From: Oligoflexus sp.
GTDB taxonomy: Bacteria; Bdellovibrionota_B; Oligoflexia; Oligoflexales; Oligoflexaceae
DNA length: 26,988 bases
Direction of reading: 5' to 3'
NCBI GenBank assembly: GCA_041736305.1
Contig: JBGSTX010000211.1
Location: 1-26,988 of the forward strand
The notes beneath the pieces are model-generated. The model saw only the letters and a list, made by a program, of their open reading frames with translations, was not told the DNA's origin and did no database searches. Of the stretch, positions 9,970 to 16,067 are shown one piece after another. The position numbers were made by a program, and so were the translations under genes. Numbering within the stretch: the stretch's first letter is position 1; every line of letters begins with the position of its first letter.

Positions 9970-10067
9970 AAAAGCGCGGCATTTATGTAATATCTGCCAG
10001 CAGATGCTTGTCCAACAAGCCTTTGACTGAAAAATTTGAGCAGAAATTTAGAGTACATTGGATAAAT

Positions 10068-13000
10068 ATGTCAATTCATCGGCGCATTCGGCCACTTCTG
10101 AAGCATTTCCAAGTGTCCCACTTAACCGCTATCGCTATTGTGGCATTGATGACCGCCTGTCAGCGCATCAGTAATGACTATGAGAGCACAATGATGCTCT
10201 GCGGTAAGCCAGCCTCTGGCTTGAATTTTGGAAATAGTAACGCCTACCGTCCCGTAAACCTTAAAAGCTCACTTATCTCAAAGCCCGATCTCAAAGCTTA
10301 TTGGGTCACTTACGATGGTACGCGAACGACTTTAGATTTCAGCTCAAAAGGCTGTGTCTACGTCCCCAAAGTTAATGAGGGTTCTCTTGGCTTCATTGAT
10401 CAGGCTGAGGGCCTCTTTGCGGTGAGCCATCAAAAAGCAGATCAGTCTTTAGCCACAGTTCAAGATACCGTCATGGAGCAGTTCCCTCAGCTGACAGCTA
10501 AGCTAAGTTGTAGCGGTCAAGATATTTGGACTAACGAGCCCTTCGTCGATCTCACCTGGGAAATTACTCAGGCAGGAAAGCAATTGACCCTGGCCGATTT
10601 GCGGAATTACTGGCCCCTGCTTCAGCTTCGCTTTCAATCAAGAAACCAAGCTGGAGCTCTCGATCAGGAATTAACGCTCACTCACCAAGCTGCCCTCAAT
10701 CTACAGCAGATAAGCGAGAACGATCCTAAATTTGGGCTGCAAATTCACGTCGCTCAGGAGCAGGACTCGTCCATCGAGCTTCAATTCCAGGACCTGCTCG
10801 ATCGCAAGCAGCTTATCGAAGGCGGCGCAGCCTGCAAAGTGCACCACAGTTTGAAAAGTCCAGTTTTAAATTCTTTTGTCATCAATGAGAAAGCTCTTCG
10901 GATCTTTCGGGGCCAAACAGTTCACCTAGAAGCGCCCGAAGGTGCTCAACTCTATATGCAGGTAGAACCTCTGCACGTCGAATCTAAAGTAGCTAAATGG
11001 GAATTTCTCAGTGCAGCCAAACAAGAGACAGAACTTAAAAAATTTAGAAACGGCCGCATGCCGATTTTCTGGCAGGAAGGCAGCTACCTTCTACGGGCTT
11101 TTACACTCAGCAGGGAAGGAAATCGCTCACCCATCTGGGAAAGAGTGGTCCAAGTCAATGAGTCGAATATGGTTGAGAAGAAAATCACTGCCCATCATTG
11201 GGTCCTGACTCAAGTTAGCCCAAGTAGTAAGGCCGGTCTGCTTAAGGTGAGCCGAGAGTCTGGACGCCCTACTATTTCAATCTATGATTTGGCAGCCGCA
11301 GGAGAAATTACAGCAGAAATTTGGCAGCCAAACGTCATGCCAGCTAGCCTGGGTCTCTTCGAAAGCGGTTTTGGGATCAACCGGCAAATCGTCGAAGGCC
11401 GCTTTGGAATCGGAGCTTCGAATCGTCAGCAGTTTTGCTTAAGCCGAGGCAGCAACCCCAGCGACGCCTATCGTGAACCTTTTCAATCGCGGATCTTTTG
11501 TTGGGAAAGACAGGAAGATAGAAGTTTCAAAGTAATATTAGATCAAGACGCCCCCTTCTGGAATGACGACGAACTTACGGCAGCCAATTTTTTTGGTGAC
11601 GAAAAGCCTGAAATTCTAGCTCATTCGTCGCAAGATGGTATTTTCCGCGTTTTCTCGCTGATTCCTTCGGCACCGATGCAAGTGAACTTTAAGCAAGAAA
11701 TTTCTTACTCAATGGAGCAAAATCGAGGAATCCAAGGTTCGCAGATCGATGCTGTCGAAGAAACTCCGCAAAAAACTTATCTTTACTGGATTGATCGTTC
11801 CAATGGCTATGGCGTTGTTTCAAGTCTAACCAATAATCCTGGGGCCTCTAACAATGGCCAGCTGCAGATGACTTATCGCAGCCCTAGCGAAATCAATCTC
11901 AGCCTCGATCAATGGGGCGTGACAAGCCCAGACGAAACCCGACTGCCAACGACCTACGCTCGTTGGCGTCAGCGCTTGCAGGTGCTCCCTGCCTGGACTG
12001 AAAAACACTTTTCACTCGTCTTTCATGACGGCGCCTTGAATCGTCGCTGGGCTACAGGACAACGAACTCTAGATAATCCTAACGCCCCCCTCATCAATAG
12101 CATCCGGTGGAACGGGCTTCCCTCGTCTACCACTGATTTCTGCTATTTCTATCCCCGTAGCGACGGCGCGCAGCCTACAACTCTAGACGACCCTTGGATG
12201 GACTGCCTAGCCTTCGGCACCGATGCGCACTTGCGCGATAAGGCTCAAATTTTTCGCTATAATAGAGATAAGAAAATATGGTCTCAAACGGCAGACATCG
12301 ATCTTTCACCACCTGAGGTTGGCCAATTCAAACCTTTCGAAAATCCACGAGCGGTACAAGAAATCGTCATAATTCCTAGCCTGCAGCCTTATGTGGCTAG
12401 CTCCGAAGATTTGAATTGGGCTGTTCTGCCTTTGGAAGGCAGCGAAGTTCTGCCGCTTTGGGAGCAGCTGAATAGCGAACAAAAGGAGAAACTGCGTCAA
12501 GGGCAAGGACAGCTCGAACTCTGGGGCAACGACCAACGCTTTGCCGCCTGGCTATGGTCAGGAGCCCTGGGTAAACCGATCGCTAGAGAGCTCAGGTTTG
12601 CCGGTCCTATTTCAGCCAGCGCTGATCTGGGTCGCAACTTAGGCCTCGTCGACTTGAGAGCGGACGGTCGCCCCCATCTCGTACAGCCTTTTGAAGAAGG
12701 GTTTGCCAGTCTCGACATCAGCGAACCAGATTCCAAGTGGCTTAAGCACTTAGGTGTTTCTGCGCCGAATTTCGTTCAAGATAATCCCCTCGGATGGAAC
12801 GGACGCAGTATCAGTCTATTGAGTGGCCGGGTTCTTCCCGACCTTGAGGGAGGAGTCTTCTGTTATGTGGCGCGAGCTTCTCAGAGCCTAGGTAAAGCTG
12901 GCCAAATCTCTTGCTATGGTTATCAGAAGCTAAGGGAGACGAAAATTGCGAAGATATTCGAAGGGGATTTCCCCGTCGAAGGTCAAGAGCAAGTAAGTGC

Positions 13001-13937
13001 GATTAAGATCGAAGGAACTGACGAGACGGCAATAGCTGTATTCAATCCCCATACGAACAAAATTACTGTGCACACTTTGCAGCTCGCACAGTCAACGCCC
13101 CTGCGTGTTTACAAAGCCAAGCTAGTACCCTGGGTTTCGGTGACTAAGGACGAAGCCAATCAAGATAAAATCGAGTCTAGTGACGCCTTCACTGTGATGG
13201 ACGACCCAGTTAGAAATACTCTACATTTAGGTACCTATTCGGATTTGGAAGAAGGGATTTTGCATTTTTCCACTCAACTGCAGCTGGGGCAGGGCGAAAG
13301 CCGTTGGGCTGTGACAACTACTGTTACCGGTGAAACGGTGGGTGGCAAATTGAAAAAGGCCGAGCTTGAAGAGCTAAGCATTTCACTCAACCCTCAGGAT
13401 TTAAGCTTAGACCTCTTCAATTATCACCGCCCCGATCTATTTAATTCTCAACGGCTCGACTGGCCTAAAGTCTACGATTCTAGAACCGTCATCAGCCCGA
13501 ATAAATCCAAGGGTTTTTACACCAACACAGGTGTAACTAAATTCGATGAGAAGGGAGTGGGTTACTGCATAGCAATGGGCAACCTCACTGATGGCGCAGT
13601 AAATGCTTATTACCATCCAGCTTGCGCCTTTTTTGCCGTCCAGACCGAGACTTTCTTCGCAGGACTCTTCAATACCTTAACTGGTATTACCGAAGATTAT
13701 GTCACTCAACCCGATCGCTTGGACACTCACTGGACCTTTCCTTTCTGGAGAAATCAGTCCAATAATCCAGAGCACAAAGCCGGCTTGATGACGAATCTCT
13801 ACGCTTTGCGCATCCCAAAAAATCTTAGTGATGACGGATGGGAAGTGCAAGCGTCGGCAGTCGTAGATATGCCTTTGAGCTTCTACGGACAGACTTGGAA
13901 TAAGCATCGCCAATTTTCATTGCGCCTAGAACCCTGA
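10068..13937 (+). CDS. Giant hypothetical lipoprotein (~1289 aa), beta-rich, with Ig-like and FG-GAP/VCBS-like motifs
   Basis: The ATG at 10068 gives a basic N-region, a hydrophobic stretch and the lipobox LMTAC. Motifs EGSYLLRAFTLSREGNRS, ANFFGDEKPEIL and VDLRADGRPHLV. The start is uncertain (ORF track gives 10008). Confidence 0.75.
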   Translation: MSIHRRIRPLLKHFQVSHLTAIAIVALMTACQRISNDYESTMMLCGKPASGLNFGNSNAYRPVNLKSSLISKPDLKAYWVTYDGTRTTLDFSSKGCVYVPKVNEGSLGFIDQAEGLFAVSHQKADQSLATVQDTVMEQFPQLTAKLSCSGQDIWTNEPFVDLTWEITQAGKQLTLADLRNYWPLLQLRFQSRNQAGALDQELTLTHQAALNLQQISENDPKFGLQIHVAQEQDSSIELQFQDLLDRKQLIEGGAACKVHHSLKSPVLNSFVINEKALRIFRGQTVHLEAPEGAQLYMQVEPLHVESKVAKWEFLSAAKQETELKKFRNGRMPIFWQEGSYLLRAFTLSREGNRSPIWERVVQVNESNMVEKKITAHHWVLTQVSPSSKAGLLKVSRESGRPTISIYDLAAAGEITAEIWQPNVMPASLGLFESGFGINRQIVEGRFGIGASNRQQFCLSRGSNPSDAYREPFQSRIFCWERQEDRSFKVILDQDAPFWNDDELTAANFFGDEKPEILAHSSQDGIFRVFSLIPSAPMQVNFKQEISYSMEQNRGIQGSQIDAVEETPQKTYLYWIDRSNGYGVVSSLTNNPGASNNGQLQMTYRSPSEINLSLDQWGVTSPDETRLPTTYARWRQRLQVLPAWTEKHFSLVFHDGALNRRWATGQRTLDNPNAPLINSIRWNGLPSSTTDFCYFYPRSDGAQPTTLDDPWMDCLAFGTDAHLRDKAQIFRYNRDKKIWSQTADIDLSPPEVGQFKPFENPRAVQEIVIIPSLQPYVASSEDLNWAVLPLEGSEVLPLWEQLNSEQKEKLRQGQGQLELWGNDQRFAAWLWSGALGKPIARELRFAGPISASADLGRNLGLVDLRADGRPHLVQPFEEGFASLDISEPDSKWLKHLGVSAPNFVQDNPLGWNGRSISLLSGRVLPDLEGGVFCYVARASQSLGKAGQISCYGYQKLRETKIAKIFEGDFPVEGQEQVSAIKIEGTDETAIAVFNPHTNKITVHTLQLAQSTPLRVYKAKLVPWVSVTKDEANQDKIESSDAFTVMDDPVRNTLHLGTYSDLEEGILHFSTQLQLGQGESRWAVTTTVTGETVGGKLKKAELEELSISLNPQDLSLDLFNYHRPDLFNSQRLDWPKVYDSRTVISPNKSKGFYTNTGVTKFDEKGVGYCIAMGNLTDGAVNAYYHPACAFFAVQTETFFAGLFNTLTGITEDYVTQPDRLDTHWTFPFWRNQSNNPEHKAGLMTNLYALRIPKNLSDDGWEVQASAVVDMPLSFYGQTWNKHRQFSLRLEP

Positions 13938-13978
13938 TGGACTCAGTGCATGTTTCGCTTCAGATTAAGGATAAGTAT

Positions 13979-14758
13979 ATGAGTTTTAAAAAAGGACTTT
14001 TCTGGATAGGTCTCATGATATCCACGCTGACTTGCAGCATGTCCGTCGCCAATGCCCAGATCTTCAATATGCAGAACGTCCTGCGAGGCAAGGTTCCTGA
14101 GGGTTTCTCTCTCCAGGCCGAAACTTCCTGGGAGAAGAAAAGCGGCAACAGCGAGGTGGATCGTTTTCTGGGTCAAGCCTCACCCAGCTGGCGTGAAGGG
14201 CCCCACCTCTGGCTTGCTGTTGCTCGAAGGGAGTACGGAGAGCAGGGCGGGAAACAATCTCTCGATAATTCTTTCTATCACCTCCGCTATCGTTATAGCT
14301 TCGACGAGGCCCTCAGCCTAGAAACCTTTCTGCAGCAGGACAGCGACCGATTCCGGCGACGTGCATCCCGTCAGGTCTATGGACTTGGGCCATATGTGAA
14401 GCTGTTGGACAGCGAGAGCGTGAGCTTAGCTTTGAGCATTGCACCTATGTACGAGAGGGAGTCAATCAGTGAAGCGGAAGGCTACAAGGAAGAGCGCACC
14501 AAGACTCGCGTTTCGTCGATGCTTTACATAGATTGGAAGTGGCAGCCTCATGTGCTGCTATCTAATGTTTTTTACGTGCAACCCAAGATCGACCGTTGGA
14601 GCGACCGACGCGTGCTGAACGAGGCGGCGCTGCAGGTGAGTCTCGCCGAGCAGGTGAGCCTTAAAACTGCCTATTCTTTAACCTACGATGCCTTACCACC
14701 GGCCGGTGTAAAAAGAACTGATACCAGCGTAAAACAAGCCTTGGTCCTCAATTTTTGA
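13979..14758 (+). CDS. DUF481-family outer-membrane beta-barrel protein
   Basis: AAGGA SD before ATG 13979 and a signal peptide. Motifs SGNS, HLRYRY, GLGPY and YVQP..D.RVLNE, amphipathic strands, C-terminal Phe (LVLNF). Confidence 0.8.
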   Translation: MSFKKGLFWIGLMISTLTCSMSVANAQIFNMQNVLRGKVPEGFSLQAETSWEKKSGNSEVDRFLGQASPSWREGPHLWLAVARREYGEQGGKQSLDNSFYHLRYRYSFDEALSLETFLQQDSDRFRRRASRQVYGLGPYVKLLDSESVSLALSIAPMYERESISEAEGYKEERTKTRVSSMLYIDWKWQPHVLLSNVFYVQPKIDRWSDRRVLNEAALQVSLAEQVSLKTAYSLTYDALPPAGVKRTDTSVKQALVLNF

Positions 14759-14798
14759 AAACTTGAGAACAGTATGGAGCAAATTTTATGCACTCGTA

Positions 14799-14827
14799 TT
14801 GCTTTTTGCGAAAAGCAAGGATAGGCT
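14799..14827 (+). promoter_or_regulatory. Candidate sigma70 promoter for the rsgA leader, overlapping an 8-bp inverted repeat
   Basis: TTGCTT(14799-14804), 17 bp, TAGGCT(14822-14827). TTGCTTTT-TGCG-AAAAGCAA at 14799-14818 could instead be the upstream gene's terminator. Confidence 0.4.
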
Positions 14828-14868
14828 AGGGTCTTCTGCCAATAAATCTCTCGATAAGGAGTATGTAT

Positions 14869-14907
14869 ATGGATGTCATCACCTTCAAAATGGGAAAGCC
14901 CAGCTGA
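14869..14907 (+). CDS. Putative leader peptide MDVITFKMGKPS* upstream of rsgA
   Basis: Strong SD TAAGGAG (14855-14861) 7 nt before the ATG. Embedded in alternative helices (see findings). Confidence 0.6.
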   Translation: MDVITFKMGKPS

Positions 14908-15008
14908 ATCGGTATCCATAGCGGACCTCCAGATGAACTGCCTTTCCCATATTTAAAAAAATTCTAGGAAATTTTTTACGTCTCAATCCTTTGGGAAGGG
15001 TTATTACA

Positions 15009-16067
15009 TTGAATTTATCTAAAATTCTAGGCTTTGATGCCTCGTTTTATGCTGCTTCATTATCAACTTTGCCTGCTGATGCCGTACTTGCGCGCGTGAT
15101 TGAACAACAAAAAGGCCTTTTTAAGGTCGCCGGCGAAGTCGGGGAGTGGTGGGCTGAGCCGAGTGGTCGCCTTCTTTATGAAGCGCAGGGAGCCGAAGAC
15201 CTGCCCGTGATTGGTGACTGGGTTCAGGTTACTGCTGGAAGCCCCCATGATCGCCTGCAGATTCTAGCTGTGCTACCCCGCAAGACTTTGATTGCGCGTC
15301 GCGCGATCGCTAAGGATAATGAAGCTCAACTTCTGGCTGCGAATGTCGATCACATCTTCGTCGTAAGCTCTCTCAATCACGATTTGAACGCTAAACGCCT
15401 CGACCGCTACCGGGCTTTGGTTCGGCAGTCCGGAGCGACCGGGACTCTGCTTCTAACGAAGGCGGATCTCATCGCTGAGGATGAAATTGTGAAACTAGTG
15501 GACAGCGTAGTGCACAGTTTCCCAGTGCTCGTGGTCAGTGGTATCTCAAACCAAGGCCTAGCTGCTTTGCGTGAAAAAATGCTGCCCGCTTCCACCTCGG
15601 TATTCATCGGTTCGTCAGGAGTTGGCAAATCCACGCTTCTCAATGCTTTACTGGGTGAAGAGAGACAGGACACTGCTGACATTCGAGAAAGCGACAGTCG
15701 CGGACGTCACACGACTAGCAGCCGCAGTCTGATCGCTCTGCCTTCCGGAGCCTTCCTCATCGACACGCCTGGAATACGCGAAATCGGTCTTTGGAACCTA
15801 GATGAAGATACTCTCCAAGAGAGCTTCAGCGAACTAGGGGGCTTTGAGGGCCGTTGTCGTTATCGTGACTGCCAGCACGAAGGCGAACCCGATTGTGCTG
15901 TTCGAGCCGCCGTGGAGGCGGGACAGCTTGACTCTGAAAGGTTAAAAAGCTTTCGCAAACTGCGTAAGGAACAAGCCTTTCTTGAAAGGCGAGATGATAA
16001 GAAAAAAATGTCGGAAGAAAAAAGTCGTTGGAAAGCGATTAACAAGGCTCATCGTCGGGACAAGTAG
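15009..16067 (+). CDS. rsgA: Ribosome small subunit-dependent GTPase A
   Basis: OB fold (PVIGDWV), AANVD, LTKADL, GSSGVGKST, RGRHTT, IDTPGIRE and the zinc finger CRYRDCQHEGEPDC. TTG 15009 is preferred as start because SD GGGAAGGG lies at 14993-15000. Confidence 0.96.
   Translation: MNLSKILGFDASFYAASLSTLPADAVLARVIEQQKGLFKVAGEVGEWWAEPSGRLLYEAQGAEDLPVIGDWVQVTAGSPHDRLQILAVLPRKTLIARRAIAKDNEAQLLAANVDHIFVVSSLNHDLNAKRLDRYRALVRQSGATGTLLLTKADLIAEDEIVKLVDSVVHSFPVLVVSGISNQGLAALREKMLPASTSVFIGSSGVGKSTLLNALLGEERQDTADIRESDSRGRHTTSSRSLIALPSGAFLIDTPGIREIGLWNLDEDTLQESFSELGGFEGRCRYRDCQHEGEPDCAVRAAVEAGQLDSERLKSFRKLRKEQAFLERRDDKKKMSEEKSRWKAINKAHRRDK

Follow-up and report, generated by a model that had tools for sequence, protein, structure and literature searches.

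A probable ribosome-sensing leader, with a Shine-Dalgarno copy inside its upstream reading frame, precedes an accessory RsgA paralogue in Oligoflexus

Main finding

The stretch of DNA analysed here (the window) comprises 26,988 nt of contig JBGSTX010000211.1 of Oligoflexus sp. (assembly GCA_041736305.1); all coordinates refer to it, and "order" means Oligoflexales. Positions 14799–15011 of the window, in our judgement, probably comprise both the promoter for an accessory paralogue of the GTPase RsgA and its 5' leader, the leader acting as a ribosome-sensing translational attenuator. An upstream open reading frame (uORF) with its own Shine-Dalgarno (SD) sequence lies in the leader, the SD of the GTPase gene is held in a helix (P3), and an exclusive second helix (P2) depends on the position of a ribosome on the uORF; on these in silico grounds the leader is classed with the leader-peptide attenuators. 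It is a new family of leader-peptide translational attenuator, on an unexpected class of gene.

The mechanism that we propose has three states. In P3 an anti-SD segment would hide the weak, TTG-start ribosome-binding site of the paralogue, and a copy of the SD in codons 8–10 of the uORF could take the anti-SD instead, as P2. On the finished, ribosome-free RNA, a further helix (P1), together with pairing between the uORF SD and a CUCC motif, would close the uORF start and lock the SD copy in a loop, so that P3 prevails and expression is OFF. Ribosomes that translate the uORF to its end would cover the SD copy, and P3 would be restored, again giving OFF. If a ribosome were held within the first three codons, P1 would melt and the SD copy would stay free; P2 could then form, exposing the SD and allowing synthesis of the GTPase. 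Since only an early-held ribosome opens the SD, the signal would be ribosomes arrested at or just after initiation, through a translation inhibitor or faulty small subunits. The sequence elements, their conservation, their pairing potential and the computed energies are what the analysis shows; that the uORF is translated, where transcription begins, that ribosomes stall and what induces the gene are what we infer.

The regulated gene

Judged from its sequence, the regulated gene is a second, accessory RsgA paralogue and not the housekeeping rsgA. A preliminary description of this DNA, made from the letters alone, had named rsgA itself as the gene controlled by the leader; that identification has to be given up, since a copy of the housekeeping type lies elsewhere in the same genome, on contig C235, without such a leader. 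The genome contains two RsgA homologues, and the other one (C235:25870–26601, minus strand) is 33% identical to the window protein. It is presumably the housekeeping copy, of the type found in nearly all relatives (some match exists in 37 of 41 genomes). In contrast, orthologues of the window protein (expectation value, E ≤ 1e-45) are patchy, occurring in 16 of the 95 genomes of the order.

The window protein matches Pfam RsgA_GTPase (9e-48) and passes the NCBIfam family profile TIGR00157 (177.4 bits, cut-off 100), but remains below the cut-off of the E. coli-type equivalog profile (204 against 360 bits). The TTG at 15009 is the start of the open reading frame (ORF), and the N-terminus LNLSKILGF aligns with the orthologue start M/L/V-N-L-x-x-L-G-W. 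Among the invariant alignment columns, G4 (K151-x-D153) precedes G1 (G201–T209) and G3 (D252–G255), and C283, C288, H290 and C296 form a candidate zinc finger; these labels are our own assignment. An AlphaFold model (predicted local distance difference test, pLDDT, 78.8) has an N-terminal oligonucleotide/oligosaccharide-binding (OB) fold, a GTPase domain and a zinc-finger domain, and superimposes on 30S-bound E. coli RsgA with template-modelling (TM) scores of 0.70/0.78 over about 315 columns at 29–30% identity. An additional basic C-terminal helix is present in the model at residues ~331–351.

In a scan of one genome per species, 578 of the first 600 pattern matches proved to be relatives. 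Of these at least 578 relatives, the 80 best are 38–48% identical to the window protein and span Bacillota, Cyanobacteria, Acidobacteriota, Actinomycetota, Planctomycetota, Bacteriovoracia and others. A metagenome scan with the window protein returned 212 pattern matches and no relative among them. The genomes of Niallia, two Calothrix, Paenibacillus and Anoxybacillus each have exactly two matches above the TIGR00157 cut-off, the canonical RsgA at 254–300 bits and the paralogue at 165–194 bits. In a FastTree phylogeny of 117 rows, one branch with 99% Shimodaira-Hasegawa-like (SH-like) support separates 94 paralogues from 23 canonical proteins; since similarity was used to choose the groups, the tree chiefly shows canonical copies from distant phyla clustering with one another and not with the paralogue of their own genome.

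Downstream of the paralogue, a same-strand ORF occurs at 54 of 80 loci. Five of these encode GNAT proteins, one an APH protein and two methyltransferases, which is a hint at most; the downstream genes vary, and we rejected a conserved operon partner. In two metagenome contigs that are close relatives (L118 and L121) about 14 codons are absent after the TTG start, including the N-terminal L-G-F/W motif that other paralogues keep.

Leader elements and their folding

On direct reading of the sequence, the uORF SD, the uORF and helices P1, P2 and P3 all lie where the preliminary description had placed them (Table 1). P2 joins 14890–14898 to 14942–14950 in 9 perfect bp. P3 joins 14941–14949 to 14992–15000 in 9 bp, one of them G-U, and is followed by a U15001–G14940 wobble. 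Because both helices use 14942–14949, they are mutually exclusive, as had been proposed. The ribosome-binding site of the paralogue (GGGAAGGG, with a TTG start) is weak. The AU-rich hairpin recognized earlier is present as well, but its 3' arm reads GAAATTTTT and not GAATTTTTT, a slip of one base; it consequently contains an A.A mismatch, and consists of 7 bp, a 1x1 loop and 3 bp in the minimum free energy (MFE) structure. Two conserved pairings can be added to those described before, namely that of the uORF SD with CUCC at 14927–14930, and hairpin H, which competes with P1.

The MFE structure of 14840–15030 contains P1, P3, the AU-rich hairpin and the GGAG:CUCC pairing of the uORF SD. The optimum at full length thus holds P1 and P3 together, which supports the earlier assignment of P1+P3 to the OFF state with P2 as its alternative. 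When the 5' arm of P1 is removed, P2 forms and the SD opens; when the SD copy in the uORF (segment 1) is removed, P3 forms. In truncated folds P1 appears once its 3' arm has been made and P2 replaces it once the anti-SD has been made, P2 being the MFE helix when the anti-SD has been transcribed and the SD not yet.

A modelled ribosome scan gave the ensemble energy required to open the ribosome-binding site (RBS; −14 to +2 of the start) with a 30-nt footprint kept unpaired, and all opening energies reported here rest on the assumed extent of that footprint (−14 to +15 nt of the P-site codon). Opening the RBS of the window leader costs 11.1 kcal/mol without a ribosome, 6.7–7.1 kcal/mol with the P-site on codons 0–2 (the first three codons), and 11–12 kcal/mol with the P-site on codon 3 onward. 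As a control, the body of the uORF was shuffled along with the following 25 nt: the free-minus-early difference was then −0.16 ± 1.18, and none of 150 shuffles reached the real value of 4.31, while the late-minus-early difference was −0.16 ± 1.49, with two of 150 reaching the real value of 4.42. Within this model, the dependence of SD exposure on ribosome position is more than chance, and the scan agrees, for codons 1–3, with the preliminary proposal that a ribosome near the uORF start melts P1, allows P2 and frees the SD.

The scan was extended to 58 leaders of all lineages, a set in which lineages are not independent and some automatic uORF or start assignments may be wrong (L007 has a wrong automatic start/uORF choice here, in the scan of the window's relatives and in the energy-based uORF criterion given below). 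A late ribosome left the RBS more closed than an early one by at least 1 kcal/mol in 34 of these leaders, with the reverse in five, and the free RNA was more closed than the early state by the same margin in 22, with the reverse in three. Twenty-four leaders were opened by at least 2 kcal/mol by some position, and in 16 of them the best codon fell in the first 15% of the uORF. The energy scans do not include locus L115, whose leader region contains N. At this locus (G074:C198) the orthologue has, in its 5' portion, a run of N flanked by duplicated sequence, probably an assembly joint.

The main rival explanation dispenses with a stall. Translation of the uORF would cover the SD copy and keep the gene OFF, and fewer ribosomes, for example when initiation-competent 30S subunits are scarce, would switch it ON, with P2 forming during transcription and persisting. 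Three observations favour this explanation: as long as the nascent RNA does not yet include the SD, its MFE helix is P2; late ribosomes close the RBS in 34 of the 58 leaders; and the peptide sequence is barely conserved. It fits the relatives better than the window: in L002–L004 the free RNA requires 7.9–10.3 kcal/mol against 10–16.8 kcal/mol with a late ribosome, and is much more open. In the window, however, the free RNA (11.1 kcal/mol) and the RNA with a late ribosome (11.2 kcal/mol) scarcely differ and only an early ribosome opens the site; moreover, P1 and the uORF-SD pairing are conserved, which would make little sense if the empty leader were ON, and a weak RBS with a TTG start would presumably compete poorly when ribosomes are scarce. 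We therefore regard control by ribosome number as rather unlikely, and prefer arrest of ribosomes at the uORF start.

Conservation of the uORF across lineages

A short ORF with a strong SD lies 100–320 nt upstream of the gene in all of the first 10 order-level orthologues, and in 15 of 16 when six more are included; the exception, L113, has a two-codon ORF only. A strict uORF test (ATG; a 5-mer of AAGGAGGTG 4–10 nt upstream; 8–35 aa) detected such a frame in the sense strand upstream of 49 of 90 paralogue loci from many phyla. The same test was positive in 4 of 90 antisense upstream regions, 6 of 90 intervals inside the gene and 4 of 87 regions farther upstream (−1000 to −600); among 4000 random 400-nt windows drawn from this genome, 197 (4.9%) were positive. 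Upstream of canonical rsgA it detected none, either in relatives (0/18) or in five named genomes (0/5), compared with 3/5 for the paralogues of those five. Conservation of the uORF before the paralogue, which the preliminary description had left as a question, is far beyond chance, both in the order and across phyla. An energy-based criterion retained 58 of 94 loci; it misses L002, which falls below the SD-energy threshold though the conserved uORF is present.

Within the Oligoflexus genome the leader has no copy, only the window itself and chance matches of 14–18 nt being recovered, and besides the window uORF there are two short strong-SD ORFs whose products start with M, D or N, and V or I. 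A DNA pattern scan of metagenomes returned five loci, of which two (L117 and L119) are chance matches and the other three sit before the same gene.

These comparisons bear on two further explanations. One is that a chance ORF and chance complementarity have been mistaken for a functional element. It agrees with the lack of significance in fold stability and with the 4.9% of random windows that hold a comparable uORF; against it stand the conservation in 15/16 and 49/90, the movement of promoter, leader and gene together behind different genes, and the position of three of the five metagenome matches before the same gene. In our view the comparative data already refute it, and we consider it extremely improbable. 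The other is that the SD helix responds to temperature, to a protein (the GTPase itself, for example) or to a small RNA, the uORF being incidental or a stabiliser. P3 and the AU-rich hairpin that bridges its arms are conserved, and about 40% of orthologues are without a uORF, so other controls exist in the family; yet the uORF is enriched more than tenfold over the controls, with length and SD kept, and its SD copy co-varies with the SD and anti-SD between lineages. The P3 duplex (−18.2 kcal/mol) is also strong for a thermometer, known RNA thermometers being weaker. We hold control of this kind to be improbable, and continue with the ribosome-sensing attenuator.

Leader peptides differ between lineages. 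In the seven genus-level sequences only M, D, G9 and K10 are constant, and the constancy of G9-K10 is explained by an RNA motif; by a manual count, 9 of the 12 peptide positions change. Among 58 leader peptides there is a bias only (14 of 58 have V as their third residue, compared with a 5.8% background), and no conserved arrest peptide of the ermC type was found in the genus or across the 58. The poor conservation of the peptide within the genus speaks against an ermC-like nascent-chain arrest tied to a particular drug, and we favour a generic arrest at or just after initiation. Of the ermC-type logic to which the preliminary description pointed, the attenuator with exclusive helices is supported.

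In cyanobacteria and similar leaders (L036, L045, L047, L058, L075 and L098) the peptides are 30–34 aa long and are conserved at the amino-acid level, with the pattern M-T/S-x-L-x-A-V-R-V ... Q-R-T-Q-G-T-E, which sets them apart from the peptides of the window's genus; this lineage may possess a true arrest peptide. The start codons of the 58 uORF-preceded paralogues, as automatically assigned, include 31 weak ones (22 TTG and 9 GTG), an unusually high share.

Pairing within the genus and the three-segment design elsewhere

The genus-level alignment has seven rows (four genomes and three metagenome contigs). The uORF has 12 codons in all seven. Four stretches are invariant: GGGAAAG in the uORF, TCCATA in the non-coding sequence that follows, the anti-SD and the SD. 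Pairing in the OFF structure reaches 94.8%, compared with 39–53% when the partners are slid. P1 has 94.3% of its cells paired, and six of its 10 pairs never vary, with no double change; the uORF-SD:CUCC extension is 91.4% paired, with one double change. P2 is 93.2% paired and has an invariant core, and in P3 (97% paired) five of the 10 pairs vary on one side yet stay paired. Hairpin H is 91.4% paired, with one compensatory change from G-C to A-U; in the window one of its pairs is broken (G.G), and the hairpin is weakened.

The same design recurs with unrelated sequence in eight cyanobacterial leaders, with CACAGAG in the uORF, CUCUGUG as the anti-SD and CACAUUGAGGAA as the SD. Their SD helix is 88% paired, compared with 31–55% when slid, and their uORF:anti-SD helix 86%, compared with 36–66%; in this eight-row set L047 is misaligned at the anti-SD. 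Each count contains three pairs with both-sided changes; those of the SD-helix count divide into one within that helix proper and two in a small inner hairpin. To judge from the alignments, the cyanobacterial leaders have the same three-segment design, with some compensatory changes. Where the test of anti-SD pairing with the uORF region is passed (the window's genus, Anoxybacillus L032, L043, L052 and the cyanobacteria), the SD copy is in the last third of the uORF.

Several results weigh against the ribosome-sensing attenuator. Pairing of the anti-SD with the uORF region surpasses its pairing with shuffled uORF regions at p ≤ 0.05 in no more than 11 of 56 leaders, and two of 56 reach p ≤ 0.01 (mean z-score −0.76), which is an enrichment and not a rule. 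About 40% of the orthologues are without such a uORF (for example L031, L068, L066, L069, L051 and L053); since some members of the paralogue clade clearly do without it, the leader is frequent but not universal. Leader MFE (−41.9) is not exceptional against shuffles (−36.5 ± 4.4; z-score −1.24, with 18 of 200 shuffles as good), nor is the fold stability of the leader parts (z-scores −0.4 to −0.8), and every opening energy depends on the footprint assumed. For the three closest relatives, an early ribosome opens the site by just 0.5–1.7 kcal/mol relative to the free RNA, though the early state is 3–8 kcal/mol more open than with a late ribosome; as the free RNA is barely more closed than the early state, the contrast there is mainly between early and late. 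P1, P2 and P3 show no both-sided change within the genus, and covariation does not exceed the shuffle controls (114/500 and 62/500), so that genus covariation is thin at this depth. Of the two comparative signs to which the preliminary description had looked, conservation of the uORF is therefore present, and covariation in the genus is thin. Finally, a consensus promoter scan did not report the candidate promoter on the plus strand, so that by consensus the promoter is weak.

A comparison of the whole window with Rfam, also envisaged in the preliminary description, recovered no curated cis-regulatory RNA: there were no matches at the gathering score, and three with E ≥ 0.47 in 14000–15800.

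Promoter, terminator and other features

The positions of all features are given in Table 1.

Table 1. Features of the promoter, leader and gene, in window coordinates
Feature	Position	Strand	Remarks
Candidate −35 hexamer TTGCTT	14799..14804	+	TTG invariant in 7/7 genus-level sequences
Candidate −10 hexamer TAGGCT, 17-nt spacer	14822..14827	+	T, A and final T invariant in 7/7
uORF Shine-Dalgarno TAAGGAG	14855..14861	+	7 nt before ATG 14869; anti-SD duplex −7.7 kcal/mol
P1 5' arm over uORF start codon	14868..14877	+	Partner 14911–14920; 10 bp, 2 G-U
uORF encoding MDVITFKMGKPS and stop, 12 codons	14869..14907	+	ATG GAT GTC ATC ACC TTC AAA ATG GGA AAG CCC AGC TGA
Segment 1, copy of the paralogue SD inside uORF (AUGGGAAAG), P2 5' arm	14890..14898	+	Codons 8–10 of uORF
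Hairpin H, alternative to P1	14910..14923	+	14910–14914 with 14919–14923
P1 3' arm GGTATCCATA	14911..14920	+	Non-coding TCCATA invariant in 7/7
CUCC pairing with uORF SD, P1 extension	14927..14930	+	Partner GGAG 14858–14861 in MFE
Segment 2, anti-SD GCCUUUCCCAU, common to P2 and P3	14940..14950	+	Direct reading and pair counts
AU-rich hairpin bridging P3 arms	14954..14978	+	In MFE; hairpin of variable sequence at same place in relatives
Segment 3, paralogue SD region UGGGAAGGGU, P3 3' arm	14992..15001	+	P3 partner of anti-SD
Accessory RsgA-family GTPase	15009..16067	+	352 aa, TTG start; profiles, model, tree

The candidate promoter agrees with the consensus at three of six positions in each hexamer (manual count), and in the seven sequences the flanks of its invariant bases vary. 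The relatives carry a different upstream gene, yet the promoter bases stay invariant; promoter, leader and gene therefore appear to travel as one unit. The promoter indicated by the preliminary description accordingly gains from the invariance of its key hexamer bases in 7/7 and loses from its poor match to the consensus and its absence from the scan. The candidate −10 hexamer would imply a transcription start near 14834. In this genome only, and in none of six relatives, a perfect 8-bp hairpin (TTGCTTTT-TGCG-AAAAGCAA, 14799–14818) overlaps the candidate −35 hexamer and the spacer.

A terminator scan of 14759–15008 on the plus strand found no terminator-like site, and so none on which a terminator-based attenuator could act. 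This result, together with the composition of the sole U-followed hairpin, whose pairs are almost exclusively A-U, speaks against transcription attenuation, in which the uORF would control a terminator and not the SD; we consider that explanation very improbable. In Niallia (L031) there is no uORF, and a long inverted repeat lies ~120–60 nt upstream of the gene, between it and a divergent upstream gene. This repeat suggests another control, operator-type or terminator-type, in some members.

Two readings of the uORF itself were rejected. The invariant GGGAAAG (14892–14898 in the window) reads in frame as G GGA AAG, which has the pattern of a −1 slippery heptamer; because the −1 frame ends at differing places in the window and its relatives, frameshifting was discarded, and pairing with the anti-SD is the simpler explanation of the conserved motif. 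An amino-acid-starvation attenuator was discarded as well, as the uORF has no run of any one codon.

Directly upstream of the leader, on the plus strand, a 1309-aa ORF without a Pfam or NCBIfam match (10008–13937) is followed by a gene for a DUF481 protein (13937–14758). The first ends where the second starts, at 13937, and the two are probably one operon.

Wider meaning

The computational evidence suggests that many bacteria (Bacillota, Cyanobacteria, Acidobacteriota, Actinomycetota and others) have a second, separately evolving RsgA, usually behind a leader of its own that seems designed to react when ribosomes are held at the outset of a reading frame. The leader would be a compact natural three-segment switch with an SD copy in the uORF, recurring with unrelated sequence across phyla. 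More speculatively, the paralogue clade may consist of inducible rescue or protection GTPases directed to the 30S subunit, with the leader sensing start-arrested ribosomes in at least eight phyla; we put this forward tentatively, as a possibility on the doubtful side. If it is true, these proteins would be the small-subunit counterpart of HflXr, ABC-F and TetM-type factors, and tetracycline-type drugs or other inhibitors of initiation and early elongation would be their natural inducers. A testable question is raised: is there stress- or antibiotic-induced quality control or protection on the small subunit?

Comparison with known systems

The literature on rsgA or RsgA in connection with leader peptides, uORFs, paralogues, WhiB7, HflXr and antibiotic induction yielded no description of a leader switch on rsgA, and the preliminary description, which knew of none, is in agreement with this. 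RsgA counts as a housekeeping factor of 30S assembly. We know of no resistance function for the type of GTPase encoded in the window, and, to our knowledge, only factors acting on the large subunit or the tRNA sites (HflXr, ABC-F and TetM) are regulated in this way.

One parallel, which counts in favour of the reading proposed here, comes from Streptomyces coelicolor. The RsgA/EngC paralogue SCO6149 is reported to show activation that depends on WblC/WhiB7 and on tetracycline, and SCO5211 does not (PMC7157823). Like the window gene, SCO6149 is a second RsgA paralogue, and it is reported to be induced by a translation inhibitor (tetracycline) while the housekeeping copy is not; its likeness to the window gene is drawn from that description. 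SCO6149 differs in being controlled by a transcription factor, the gene of which reportedly carries a uORF (PMC7157823).

In protein structure the window GTPase resembles E. coli RsgA/YjeQ (PDB 5no2, 7boi and 5uz4) in its fold, its circularly permuted GTPase motifs and its zinc finger; in contrast to that protein, it belongs to a separate clade of patchy distribution and has its own leader and an extra C-terminal helix.

In gene arrangement the closest systems are hflXr of Listeria, vmlR and lmo0919 (ABC-F), in each of which an accessory paralogue of a housekeeping ribosome factor stands behind an arrest-sensing uORF. Control by these uORFs acts mainly through terminators, whereas no terminator was found in the window leader, and control there would be exerted at the SD.

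In the logic of the leader the closest systems are the leader-peptide translational attenuators, which include ermC/ermB, cat-86 and cmlA. With ermC/ermB the window leader has in common a short leader frame with its own SD, a buried SD of the gene, an exclusive helix with leader sequence, and a decision that depends on ribosome position. However, the window has three switching segments and a lock helix over the uORF start in place of four segments, and its leader is predicted to open at the first three codons and not in mid-leader. Furthermore, the ribosome would have to leave the leader segment free and not cover it, the peptide is poorly conserved, and the gene encodes a ribosome GTPase in place of a methyltransferase or acetyltransferase.

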